Source: a virus (Duplodnaviria; Heunggongvirae; Uroviricota; Caudoviricetes). From it: a stretch of 7,239 nucleotides of DNA. Position 1 is the first letter of the stretch; every line of letters starts with the position of its first letter. This document shows, in pieces, positions 1,584-6,610 of the stretch. The notes beneath the pieces were generated by a model. That model was not told the DNA's origin and did no database searches. It worked only from the letters and a program-made list of their open reading frames with translations. The position numbers were made by a program, and so were the translations under genes. The DNA lies in the IMG/VR virus record IMGVR_UViG_2529292835_000020. The stretch is one strand, 5' to 3'.

Positions 1584-1924
1584 ATGAGAATTGATTATAG
1601 TATTAGCAATGAACACGCAGAGAAATTTATCAGTCTTTTAGTGTTGGGTGTTTTATATTCTATTGAAAAAAAGCAATATCTATAGATGAGGCAGAAGGTT
1701 TTATATTTAAGCCATCTACGTCAAAAACATTGAATGCTGCATCGCACTCTAAAAACTTAATTGACATTATAGATTCTGGTTGTGAGCTTGAAGATATATC
1801 TAGCATCATTCCTGAAAATTTATCAGGTAATATTGATAAATTAATTAACCAGACGCTGGATTTTATTCGAGGTGCTCCTGATTTTGGCGGTGCAGTCGAT
1901 AAGGAAATTATTTTAGTCAAATAA
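1584..1924 (+). pseudogene. Small gene (candidate immunity-like partner) split by a -1 frame change at an A7 tract: 1584..1685 (33 codons) continues in the -1 frame 1667..1924
   Basis: ATG 1584 overlaps the upstream TAA (TAATG) with GGAG at 1571-1574. The frame stops at TAG 1683-1685, but the -1 frame is open from 1667 to TAA 1922-1924 and has no plausible ATG of its own. One extra A in the 1666-1672 run would fuse both parts into a 113-codon ORF. Confidence 0.35.
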
Positions 1925-2156: not shown

Positions 2157-3407
2157 GTGAACCCGGTGCTGGGTGCAAAGGTGCTGCCGGGCGAGACGGA
2201 CATTGCGCTGCCCGGCCCGCTGCCGTTCATCCTTTCCCGCGCCTACAGCAGTTACCGGACCAGGACGCCCGCGCCGGTAGGGGTGTTCGGTCCCGGCTGG
2301 AAAGCGCCCTTCGATATCCGCTTACAGATACGCGATGAAGGCCTGATACTCAACGACAGCGGCGGCAGGAGCATTCACTTTGAGCCGCTGTTTCCCGGCG
2401 AGGTAAGCTACAGCCGCAGCGAGTCACTCTGGCTGGCGCGGGGCGGAGTAGCGGCGCAGCACAGTTCGCAGCCGCTAAGCGCGCTCTGGCAGGTGCTGCC
2501 GGAAGATGTTCGCCTGAGTCCGCATGTGTACCTGGCGACAAACAGCCTTCAGGGGCCGTGGTGGATACTCAGCTGGCCGGAGCGGGTGCCGGGGGCGGAC
2601 GAGGTGCTGCCGCCGGAGCCGCCCGCATACCGGGTGCTGACGGGCGTGGTGGACGGCTTCGGGCGGACGCTGACTTTCCACCGGGCGGCGGAGGGTGACG
2701 TGGCGGGCGCGGTGACGGGGGTGACGGACGGCGCGGGCCGCTGTTTTCACCTGGTGCTGACCACACAGGCGCAGCGGGCGGAAGCCTTCCGTAAACAGCG
2801 CGCCACGTCTTTATCTTCCCCTGCCGGTCCCCGTTCTGCTTCCTCTTCTTCTGCTTTCCCCGACACGCTGCCCGCCGGTACAGGATACGGTGCCGATAAC
2901 GGTATCCGGCTGGAGGCGGTGTGGCTGACACACGACCCGGCATACCCGGATGAACAGCCGACTGCGCCGCTGGCGCGCTACACGTACACGGCCAGCGGAG
3001 AACTGCGGGCGGTGTATGACCGCAGCGGGACGCAGGTTCGCGGGTTTACTTATGATGCGGAGCACGCCGGGCGGATGGTGGCGCACCATTATGCGGGGAG
3101 GCCGGAGAGCTGCTACCGGTATGATGATACCGGTCGGGTGACGGAGCAGGTCAACCCGGAGGGGCTGGACTACCGCTTTGAGTACGGAGAGAGCCGGGTA
3201 ATCATCACGGACAGCCTGAACCGGCGGGAGGTGCTGTACACGGAAGGCGAGGGTGGCCTGAAGCGGGTGGTGAAGAAGGAGCATGCCGACGGGAGCATCA
3301 CCCGCAGCGAGTATGATGAGGCGGGGAGGCTGAAGGCGCAGACGGATGCGGCGGGGCGGCGGACGGAGTACCGGCTGCATATGGCGTCGGGTGCGGTGAC
3401 GCGGTGA
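2157..3407 (+). CDS. Rhs N-terminal core fragment (a gene caller would report this segment of the rhs pseudogene as a separate CDS)
   Basis: ORF-track frame; translation aligns with the Rhs N-terminal region as I recall it (NPV-GAKVLPGETD-ALPGPLPFILSR-YSSYRT…). Not an independent gene. Confidence 0.5.
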   Translation: MNPVLGAKVLPGETDIALPGPLPFILSRAYSSYRTRTPAPVGVFGPGWKAPFDIRLQIRDEGLILNDSGGRSIHFEPLFPGEVSYSRSESLWLARGGVAAQHSSQPLSALWQVLPEDVRLSPHVYLATNSLQGPWWILSWPERVPGADEVLPPEPPAYRVLTGVVDGFGRTLTFHRAAEGDVAGAVTGVTDGAGRCFHLVLTTQAQRAEAFRKQRATSLSSPAGPRSASSSSAFPDTLPAGTGYGADNGIRLEAVWLTHDPAYPDEQPTAPLARYTYTASGELRAVYDRSGTQVRGFTYDAEHAGRMVAHHYAGRPESCYRYDDTGRVTEQVNPEGLDYRFEYGESRVIITDSLNRREVLYTEGEGGLKRVVKKEHADGSITRSEYDEAGRLKAQTDAAGRRTEYRLHMASGAVTR

Positions 3408-3905
3408 CGGGGCCGGACGGCAGGACGGTACGGTATGGCTATAACAGCCAGCGGCAGGTGACGTCAGTGACGTACCCGGACGGGCTTCGCAGCAGCCGGG
3501 AGTATGATGAGAGGGAAGGCTGACGGCGGAGACCTCGCGCAGCGGTGAGACAACGCGGTACAGCTATGATGACCCGGCGAGTGAGCTGCCGACAGGGATA
3601 CAGGACGCGACGGGCAGTACAAAACAGATGGCATGGAGCCGTTACGGTCAACTGCTGGCCTTCACGGACTGCTCGGGGTACACGACGCGGTATGAGTACG
3701 ACCGGTACGGTCAACAAATCGCCGTTCACCGGGAAGAAGGCATCAGCACTTACAGCAGTTATAACCCGCGTGGCAACTGGTCAGTCAGAGGGATGCGCAG
3801 GGGCGGGAGACCCGTTATGAGTACAGCGCCGCAGGCGACCTGACAGCGACGATATCACCGGACGGTAAACGCAGCACCATCGAATATGATAAACGCGGGC
3901 GTCCG

Positions 3906-4613
3906 GTGAGTGTGACGGAAGGCGGTCTGACGCGCAGCATGGGGTATGACGCTGCCGGGCGCATCACTGTGCTGACCAACGAGAACGGCAGCCAGTCCAC
4001 GTTCCGGTATGACCCGGTCGACAGGCTGACGGAGCAGCGTGGCTTTGATGGCAGGACGCAACGTTACCAGTATGACCTGACCGGAAAACTCACGCAGAGT
4101 GAAGATGAGGGGCTTATCACCCTCTGGCACTACGATGCGTCGGACCGCATCACCCGGCGCACGGTGAACGGCGACCCGGCGGAGCAGTGGCAGTATGATG
4201 AACACGGGTGGCTAACCACCATCAGCCATACCAGTGACGGCCACCGAGTGTCGGTCCACTACGGCTATGACGATAAAGGCCGCCTGACGGGCGAACGGCA
4301 GACGGTGGAGAACCCGGAGACGGGGGAGATGCTGTGGGAGCATGAGACGGGGCATGCGTACAGCGAACAGGGGCTGGCGACCCGTCAGGAGCCGGACGGC
4401 CTGCCGCCGGTGGAGTGGCTGACGTATGGCAGCGGTTATCTTGCGGGGATGAAGCTGGGCGGAACGCCACTGGTCGAGTACACGCGGGACCGGCTGCACC
4501 GTGAGACGGTGCGCAGCTTCGGCGGTGGCAGGCCTGATGAAGCTTGCCACCGCCTGGACATACACCCTCACAGGGCAGCTACAGAGCAGGCACCTGAACC
4601 TCCCGCAGCTTGA
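3906..4613 (+). CDS. Rhs central core fragment with YD repeats (segment of the rhs pseudogene)
   Basis: ORF-track frame; YD-repeat content ([18 protein letters not shown]); homologous frame actually opens at about 3765. Confidence 0.45.
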
Positions 4614-6240
4614 CCGGGACTACGACTGGAACGACAACGGACAGCTAATCCGCATCAGCGGCCCGCAGGAGAGCCGGGAGTACCGTTACAGTGACACGGG
4701 AAGGCTGACGGGCGTCCACACCACGGCGGCGAACCTGGATATCGATATCCCGTATGCGACGAACCCGGCAGGAAACCGGCTGCCGGACCCGGAACTGCAC
4801 CCGGACAGCACCCTCACGGCGTGGCCGGATAACCGCATCGCGGAAGATGCGCACTATGTCTACCGCTACGATGAATACGGCAGGCTGGCGGAGAAGACGG
4901 ACCGCATCCCGGAAGGGGTGATACGGATGCACGACGAGCGGACCCACCACTACCACTACGACAGCCAGCACCGTCTGGTGTTCTACACGCGGATACAGCA
5001 CGGTGAGCCGCAGGTGGAGAGCCGCTACCTCTATGACCCGCTGGGCCGCCGGACGGGAAAACGGGTGTGGCGGCGGGAGCGTGACCTGACGGGGTGGATG
5101 TCGCTGTCGCGTAAACCGGAGGAGACATGGTACGGGTGGGACGGTGACAGGCTGACGACGATACAGACCGGCACCACGCGTATCCAGACGGTGTACCAGC
5201 CGGGGAGCTTCACGCCGCTCCTGAGAATCGAAACAGAGAATGGCGAACAGGCGAAGGCGCGGCACCGTAGCCTGGCGGAGGTGTTGCAGGAGGACACGGG
5301 TGTGACGCTACCGGCGGAGCTGGCGGTGATGCTGGGGAGGCTGGAGCGGGAACTGCGCGCGGGAGCGGTGAGTGCGGAGAGTGAGGCATGGCTTGCGCAG
5401 TGCGGGCTGACGGCGGAACAGATGGCCGCGCAGATGGAGGCGGAATACATCCCGGAGAGGAAACTTCATCTTTACCACTGTGACCACCGTGGACTGCCGC
5501 AGGCGCTCATCACCCCGGAAGGCGAAACGGCGTGGTGCGGGGAGTATGACGAGTGGGGGAACCAGCTTAATGAGGAGAACCCGCATCACCTGTACCAGCC
5601 GTACCGTTTGCCGGGGCAGCAGTATGATGAGGAGTCGGGACTGTATTACAACCGTCACCGGTACTACGATCCGTTGCAGGGGCGGTATATCACCCAGGAT
5701 CCGATAGGGTTGAAGGGGGGAATAAATCTATACACGTATCCACTGGCACCAATACGTTACACTGATCCACTGGGGTTAGAACGAGTTATAAGTGTATATG
5801 GGCCTCCCGCTCCAGACCGGGCAGGTGCTGAAACTCCTCTTGTTCTTACTGATATGACTGGAGGAGTGACTATTTATTATGATCCTGAAACAGGTGATTC
5901 AATGACTTTTGATAGTAGCAATAGAATTGATCGTCGTTCTCAACGTGGTGCTGGTGATCCATATACAGGTGAAGTCGTTGGTTGTGAGACAAATGAATCA
6001 GGAATATCGGCAGCATATGGCACAACGAAGATCTATACTACAGATACTAGAGCAAGATGGCTACATGGTGGGGGATCATCGTTGCGCGATCCTTATGCTC
6101 CTCGACAAGGCTGGAAACCAACTATGGGATGTACCCGTGCACAGAATGAAGATGTAGATGAGTTGTGTAAGAAAGTGACAAGTTGGATGTATTCGCATCC
6201 TGGAGAGAGAATTAGATATGAACGTTTTAAGACACGTTAA
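4501..6240 (+). CDS. Rhs C-terminal core plus toxin tip (longest intact segment of the rhs pseudogene)
   Basis: 579-codon open frame containing YD repeats, DPLGL (5764-5778) and the 153-codon C-terminal domain; stop TAA 6238-6240. Confidence 0.55.
5779..6237 (+). other. Rhs C-terminal toxin domain, putative L,D-transpeptidase (YkuD) fold
   Basis: Begins immediately after DPLGL. Contains WLHGGG (His codon 6064-6066) and, about 22 residues later, [17 protein letters not shown] (Cys codon 6130-6132), resembling the YkuD His … (S/T)xGC(I/V)Rx-N-D…L active-site signature. Composition switches to AT-rich. Confidence 0.5.
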
Positions 6241-6610
6241 TGCGATTAACATGGGAGTGTGCATTCTAATTTTGGTTATTGGATGTGCAAATGCTAAAGT
6301 TCTTAAACGATGTATATTACCCGCTCCTGATGGTGGCGTAGAAAAACTATCAAAACCCAACTTACATGGAGTAATTAAAAAAGTTGATTTGAACACAAAT
6401 GAAGCGGAAATTAAAATAAAAGAGGGGGGGGCAGTGAGTTTTATTTTTAATGAGGAAACATTGTATTTTACTGTTTTTGGTGGGGATTTTATTATGGATG
6501 ATTTAAAAAAAGTAAAAAATACGGAAGCATGGGTATGGTATAAAAATTGCGATAGTAAAAATAAAAATGTGGCAGTTGAACTTCTTCAAATCTACGAATT
6601 GCATCAATGA
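6218..6610 (+). CDS. Predicted lipoprotein or exported small protein; candidate cognate immunity protein of the Rhs C-terminal toxin
   Basis: ATG 6218 overlaps the last codons of rhs (stop 6238-6240). N-terminus [23 protein letters not shown] has a positive n-region, hydrophobic core and lipobox-like VIGC (AXA-like ANA follows). AT-rich; stop TGA 6608-6610. Position matches Rhs immunity genes. Confidence 0.65.

Follow-up and report, generated by a model that had tools for sequence, protein, structure and literature searches.

Loss of one A from an in-frame A8 run as the probable origin of a dnaX-type slippery heptamer in a DUF3969 gene of the Escherichia coli rhsE locus

In dnaX of Escherichia coli, the slippery heptamer A AAA AAG is accompanied by an internal Shine–Dalgarno (SD) sequence about 10 nt upstream and by a strong stem–loop a few nucleotides downstream, and this arrangement is conserved. 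Transposases of the IS3/IS911 type join orfA to orfB on the same heptamer, a short ORF being followed by a longer −1 ORF that has no ATG; families of IS elements keep this two-frame layout, and RNA structures stimulate the shift (PMC4066793). Heptamers of the V_VV.A_AA.G class shift in E. coli at a frequency of about 0.3% when unstimulated, and even the most favourable 3′ context raises this to no more than about 3.7% (Sharma et al., 2014; PMC4066793). Slippage on a homopolymer can also regenerate traces of a full-length protein from a gene with an indel, as for the 'savior' indel in the G-run of the herpesvirus thymidine kinase gene, where selection has been shown to act on the trace product (Atkins et al., 2016; PMC5009743). 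A polymorphic toxin followed by its immunity gene is in turn a described signature (Poole et al., 2011; PMC3150448), and in orphan rhs-CT/rhsI modules a CT fragment devoid of core or start is directly followed by a small ORF with an SD sequence and an ATG, IS/H-repeat elements being present in the same Rhs locus (PMC3150448; Koskiniemi et al., 2014, PMC3967940).

The reading frame at positions 1584–1924 of the window (the whole stretch of 7,239 nucleotides that was analysed) shares something with each of these systems. It has the same 0-frame heptamer as dnaX and depends on the same host translation apparatus; unlike dnaX, however, the site has no significant structure or conservation around it, and its sole SD-like element, GGGUG, is weak and lies 16 nt upstream. 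Its short ORF and longer, ATG-less −1 ORF recall the IS3/IS911 transposases, but the DUF3969 family to which it belongs is read in a single frame, the split allele being confined to E. coli and Shigella. As with the herpesvirus thymidine kinase, slippage could regenerate a trace of full-length protein; here, in contrast, the partner toxin is dead and any role of the trace product would be hypothetical. The CT fragment, the small ORF behind it and the neighbouring IS/H-repeat element are those of an orphan rhs-CT/rhsI module, with the differences that point lesions inactivate both partners (a TAG codon in the toxin, an A8-to-A7 deletion in the immunity gene), that the module lies upstream of a resident PAAR-Rhs gene, and that toxicity and immunity are putative for this pair. 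We conclude, with a probability of roughly 0.86, that 1584–1924 is an ordinary, nearly fixed pseudogene within a dead orphan Rhs toxin/immunity module, and not a programmed frameshift.

Read from the window sequence, the ATG at 1584–1586 starts an ORF of 33 residues that ends at TAG 1683–1685. The ATG overlaps the stop codon upstream (TAA, 1582–1584) as TAATG, and a GGAG SD sequence (1571–1574, + strand), kept in the Salmonella orthologue, lies 9 nt 5′ of it. In the 0 frame the codons are GAA (1665–1667), AAA (1668–1670), AAG (1671–1673), CAA, TAT, CTA and TAG (1683–1685); the A7 tract (1666–1672, + strand), which we take as the site of a 1-nt deletion in an ancestral A8, is followed by G1673, and A AAA AAG thus occupies 1667–1673 in the 0 frame. 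The −1 frame, with a TGA at 1664–1666, is open from 1667 to TAA 1922–1924 and has no ATG. A −1 shift on the heptamer would join 30 codons to 83 codons of the −1 frame in a product of 113 residues, with ...YSIEKKAISIDEAEGFIFK as the junction peptide. An earlier description made from the letters of the window (here, the sequence-only reading) had reported the in-frame heptamer, a stop four codons on, an open −1 frame devoid of ATG and a fused length of 113 residues, and it is accurate in each of these coordinates. The region has a G+C content of 32%, at which many stop codons are to be expected, and the fused translation belongs to a known family; the long −1 frame is therefore more than chance.

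That family is DUF3969 (PF13108), matched by residues 10–102 of the fused translation with 69.6 bits (E = 2.7e-19), against a Pfam score cut-off of 25 bits. Single-frame homologues of 112–121 residues align end to end with the fused translation, which is 47–66% identical to them over 96–100% of its length (Salmonella, Xenorhabdus and other bacteria); identity is 63–66% for the Salmonella homologues and about 50% for those of Xenorhabdus. Residues 1–30, encoded in the 0 frame, match the N-termini of the homologues, with M1, Y5, F15, L19, L21, G22 and L24 conserved, and the frameshift junction falls directly before K-x-ISIDEAEGFIFKP (K-x-ISIDEAEGFIF), the block that varies least within the family. 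The colinear match over the full length, together with the position of the junction at the conserved block, indicates that the two ORFs are the halves of one ancestral gene. The 5′ part, in the 0 frame (1584–1685, + strand), has 30 authentic codons followed by an out-of-register QYL and the stop; the 3′ part, in the −1 frame (1673–1924, + strand), has 83 codons and a TAA. An intact member of the family would be read in one uninterrupted frame; in the window this is possible only through a −1 shift at 1667–1673, and the allele so has the attributes of a pseudogene of its family.

An AlphaFold2 model of DUF3969, built from an 18-sequence alignment, is of low confidence (mean pLDDT 56.7, pTM 0.45); it is mostly helical, and its first helix (residues 9–29) is encoded by the 5′ ORF. 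A search of PDB sequences with DUF3969 gave no match, and a literature search for 'DUF3969' found no paper that mentions the name. Internal starts for the 3′ part were considered and rejected: neither TTG 1730 nor the ATA starts of some annotations is preceded by an SD-like sequence, and the product would be devoid of the conserved N-terminal helix. PGAP leaves the remnant unflagged as frameshifted and instead records short CDSs of 64–86 residues under the name 'DUF3969 family protein', namely 64 (from TTG 1730), 82 (from 1676, an ATA in the window) and 86 (from a TTG, in A6 alleles). Such truncated entries populate the protein databases, for example as a 437-member cluster with an 80-residue representative.

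How other species read the gene bears directly on the origin of the heptamer. With one genome scanned for each species, relatives of DUF3969 were found at 27 loci, and the gene is single-frame in 26 of these 27 species representatives, the A7 frameshift being found in Shigella flexneri only. All 26 representatives from outside Escherichia and Shigella are thus single-frame, several of them with an in-frame run of A6 to A9 at the same codons: GAA AAA AAA ATA in Xenorhabdus (A9), GAA AAA AAA CTA in Proteus cibi (A8), and A6–A7 runs in other species. The closest orthologue, from Salmonella (66% identical), has no A run and reads GAA AAT AAG GTA ATA TCT ATA GAT GAG. From these codons we infer that the ancestral E. 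coli sequence was GAA AAA AAA GCA. Removal of one A gives GAA AAA AAG CA, and with it a 0-frame A AAA AAG; the in-frame heptamer is an automatic outcome of the A8-to-A7 deletion and, as such, adds no independent evidence for recoding. Across the 27 species-representative loci, the two-frame architecture is not conserved among diverged homologues. The sequence-only reading had offered a dnaX-type programmed −1 frameshift, a pseudogenising A8-to-A7 deletion and a sequencing error as possible explanations, and had proposed a homologue search with the fused 113-residue translation, in which homologues encoding the fused protein in one frame with A8 would count against programmed shifting. That search returned single-frame homologues, some of them with an in-frame A8. 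The single-frame genes of Salmonella, Proteus cibi, Xenorhabdus and E. coli VCSW8 (A8) argue for the deletion, and the dnaX-type frameshift loses its support.

The partner toxin of the DUF3969 gene tells a similar story of decay. The window represents an E. coli rhsE-type region (the ydcC...ydcD locus), in which an ISAs1/H-repeat transposase gene, a 159-codon ORF, the DUF3969 gene, a PAAR-Rhs gene (from 1999) and a small downstream ORF follow one another. The transposase, of the ISAs1 family (H-repeat, ydcC-like; 17–982, + strand), matches Pfam DDE_Tnp_1 (1.5e-30) and DDE_Tnp_1_assoc, and the equivalent gene appears in RefSeq as 'ISAs1 family transposase' or ydcC; it abuts the toxin fragment, in the place where an Rhs core would be expected. 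The fragment itself (985–1464, + strand) has neither an Rhs core nor an ATG and ends prematurely at a TAG. Its product, a 'hypothetical protein' in RefSeq (WP_000960005), is 59% identical to a Salmonella Rhs C-terminus, beginning just past DPxGL. As the homology begins after this end of the core, 985–1464 can be read as an orphan Rhs-CT, the core of which was replaced by the IS element. The TAG nonsense codon (1462–1464, + strand) stands at the conserved Trp (TGG) of the GKWxKVYKDG motif; all intact homologues aligned across this position have a W, and every E. coli and Shigella copy examined has the TAG. Past the TAG, the remainder of the domain continues in the same frame for 39 codons (1465–1584, + strand; SKVYKDGFDASGRKVSIHYFESQSGRVFNVKVKPYWSNL and then the stop) up to TAA 1582–1584, and corresponds, in those homologous loci whose alignment covers it, to the best-conserved stretch of the toxin domain, which the E. 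coli toxin consequently loses through the TAG in place of the Trp. In strain 700462 the toxin has a second stop, and the DUF3969 gene an A6 tract; in VCSW8 the toxin carries an ISEc1 insertion. Judging from its sequence, then, the E. coli partner toxin is dead, through the loss of the Rhs core to ISAs1 and the Trp-to-TAG change. A search of the + strand between 900 and 2100 found no promoter-like site.

The toxin domain, of about 90 residues, is unannotated; in the window it lies at 1300–1584, with the pattern YxSIKDAPxYPxGF...GKWxKVYKDG...SIHYFxSxSGxVFxVKVKxxWSN. It had no match in Pfam or NCBIfam, and nothing credible among PDB sequences (best E = 0.24). In 25 of the 27 loci the domain is encoded directly upstream of the DUF3969 gene, the gap between the end of the toxin and the start of DUF3969 being 2–23 nt in most of the 25. 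It is carried on different scaffolds, including Rhs/YD-repeat C-termini in Salmonella and the Bacillota, CdiA-like proteins, after VENN, in Proteus, and small signal-peptide proteins in Xenorhabdus. A conserved adjacency of this kind is the signature of polymorphic toxin/immunity pairs, and it suggests an immunity role for DUF3969, which we regard as a candidate immunity gene. The guess of the sequence-only reading that the fused product is an 'immunity-like protein' gains support from this synteny with a polymorphic-toxin C-terminal domain. The domain of about 90 residues and DUF3969 would form a candidate new toxin/immunity family pair, with a distribution from the Enterobacterales to the Bacillota. 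The most useful by-product of the analysis is this functional hypothesis, in which DUF3969 is the proposed immunity partner of an unnamed polymorphic-toxin domain.

We propose that the E. coli rhsE (ydcC...ydcD) locus holds an orphan Rhs module in which DUF3969 is the candidate immunity gene, and that this gene was inactivated by the loss of one A from the in-frame A8 (GAA AAA AAA GCA to GAA AAA AAG CA). The A7 state is close to fixation in E. coli and Shigella. The partner toxin is dead too, ISAs1 having replaced its Rhs core and a TAG its Trp. The A AAA AAG heptamer would be a by-product of the deletion rather than a signal that evolved for recoding. Translation from ATG 1584, helped by a good GGAG SD sequence, would mostly terminate at TAG 1683 after 33 residues, and a small fraction of the ribosomes may slip into the −1 frame (about 0.3%, with a few per cent as the upper limit, a rate that we infer from the literature). 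Possibly, RNA polymerase also adds an A on the A7 run from time to time. Slippage or an added A would regenerate the exact ancestral protein of 113 residues, at a trace level and provided that the region is transcribed. Nothing indicates that this leak is selected, or that it is enough for immunity. Two points weigh against a plain pseudogene: A AAA AAG belongs to the most shift-prone class of heptamers in E. coli, and some full-length product is to be expected; and frame-restoring alleles (A7 with an added T, A5 and A8) are on record, so the intact protein may be useful in some lineages.

Of 5,426 complete E. coli genomes, about 604 contain the segment, at 99% identity or more in nearly every case, and 563 of the 606 E. 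coli records that carry the locus (about 93%) have an exact match to the A7 86-mer. A6, the most common secondary length, leaves the frame broken and was seen in at least 15 genomes. The frame is restored by A5, found in one complete genome and some short contigs, and by A7 with a T insertion 9 nt downstream (EKKQYLIDE), found in seven contigs and in none of the complete genomes; the A8 80-mer is found in two E. coli records only. The assemblies of SCU-152 (NZ_CP051698, A8) and GCA_025988885.1 (A5) contain many homopolymer indels when set against other strains, for instance A5 to A7 and T5 to T9, and for this reason the A8 of the former and the A5 of the latter are untrustworthy without read-level support. 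More generally, the tract-length alleles were set aside as proof of selection or of phase variation, several of the variant assemblies being error-prone. A run in the PAAR-Rhs gene (2125–2131), 450 nt downstream, served as a control: 488 of 578 records have A8 there, and 73 share the A7 of the window. Hence assemblies can call an A8 correctly, and the A7 minority at the control run indicates that A8-to-A7 deletions arise and spread at this locus. The whole segment of 541 nt is 100% identical in most genomes; for that reason the retention of A7 with an intact downstream frame says almost nothing for or against selection.

Of the alternatives, the one that survives best is that of a 'pseudo-pseudogene', in which unstimulated slippage, or the addition of an A by the polymerase, would yield enough DUF3969 to act against the intact toxin of competitors. 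The heptamer is in the correct frame and a shift on it restores the exact ancestral sequence; a good SD sequence and the ATG have been retained; motifs of this class shift at about 0.3% even when unstimulated, a figure that can reach about 3.7% if the 3′ context is favourable (PMC4066793); indels are known to be compensated by frameshifting at a low level (PMC5009743); and the intact toxin is present in Salmonella, Proteus and Xenorhabdus. However, immunity proteins are normally stoichiometric, and an output of 0.3–4% is therefore unlikely to protect. Nor is purifying selection seen: in E. coli the DUF3969 gene has five nonsynonymous SNPs (V23G, A31T, a K-to-R, an H-to-Q and a T-to-M change) and two synonymous ones, a set of about seven that lies near the neutral expectation and is consistent with neutrality, although the sample is too small for a formal dN/dS. 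Moreover, the A6 alleles found in at least 15 genomes destroy the frame of the heptamer, and no promoter-like site was found. We consider this alternative unlikely. It is very unlikely that the A7 leak gives E. coli and Shigella a standing protection against the toxin of Salmonella, Proteus or Xenorhabdus while sparing them the cost of full expression.

A genuine programmed −1 frameshift of the dnaX or IS3 type, with products of 33 and 113 residues in a set ratio, would account for the exact 0-frame A AAA AAG, the stop four codons on and the long −1 ORF, in an allele that is nearly fixed in E. coli. Against it stand the absence of the arrangement from all 26 other species, the fact that the motif follows automatically from the A8-to-A7 deletion, and a neighbouring toxin that is itself a pseudogene. 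The expected stimulators are also missing. Downstream of the heptamer, neither the 87 nt at 1674–1760 (−13.7 kcal/mol, z = −1.21) nor the 47 nt at 1674–1720 (−6.4 kcal/mol, z = −0.84) folds significantly better than shuffled sequence, and the best hairpin 3′ of the heptamer begins 13 nt downstream; folding thus bears out the earlier impression, gained by eye, that no obvious hairpin follows. No internal SD sequence lies 10–14 nt 5′ of the heptamer; the sole SD-like candidate, GGGUG at 1646–1650 (−6.3 kcal/mol), is 16 nt upstream, inside conserved Leu-Gly-Val codons, and other sites in the gene match the anti-SD more strongly. An Rfam search matched no family. Programmed frameshifting at this site is, in our view, highly improbable.

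We would be just as surprised to find a phase-variable switch, in which slipped-strand mispairing on the poly-A tract would toggle the immunity gene between an active state (A8 or A5) and a silent one (A7 or A6). A5, A6, A7 and A8 do all occur among E. coli assemblies, but 563 of 606 records have A7; the other states make up at most about 4% between them and are confounded by assembly error. A run of 7–8 A is, in addition, short for efficient phase variation. Finally, a sequencing or assembly error in the window, the true tract being A8, might be suspected from three private 1-nt deletions in the Rhs core, which hint at an imperfect source; it is excluded for practical purposes by the identical A7 86-mer in 563 independent records and by the comparable run 450 nt away, which is given as A8 by 488 of 578 records.

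The pseudogene has little bearing on the biology of recoding, other than as a case in which a homopolymer deletion at Lys-Lys codons mimics a dnaX-type signal. An in-frame A AAA AAG followed by a long −1 ORF is, in other words, insufficient evidence for programmed frameshifting.

The remainder of the window has further interruptions. A second A-run frameshift lies in the PAAR-Rhs gene, at the run used above as a control, where CCT AAA AAA AGG, with an A7 at 2125–2131, splits a gene that starts at about 1999–2006 into ORFs 1999–2160 and 2157–3407; with A8 the gene is intact and reads CPKKKDSPNYGNPVNP, and RefSeq flags the A7 copies as 'frameshifted'. In the Rhs core, at about 3400, 3512 and 3772, three 1-nt deletions in G-rich runs, relative to 120899, NCTC8623 and CPww7, are private to the window and yield the further ORFs 3404–3523, 3628–3843 and 3906–4613; they may represent additional decay or errors in the source sequence. 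The best complete E. coli genome is at most 97.8% identical to the whole window. The C-terminus of the resident Rhs protein (5700–6610 region) has a sub-threshold match to a YkuD L,D-transpeptidase (E = 6.6e-4), and the overlapping ORF of 130 residues that follows it (6218–6610) a sub-threshold match to DUF4367; together they presumably form an active-type toxin/immunity pair. At the same locus, CPww7 has a different Rhs C-terminal domain, followed by ydcD.
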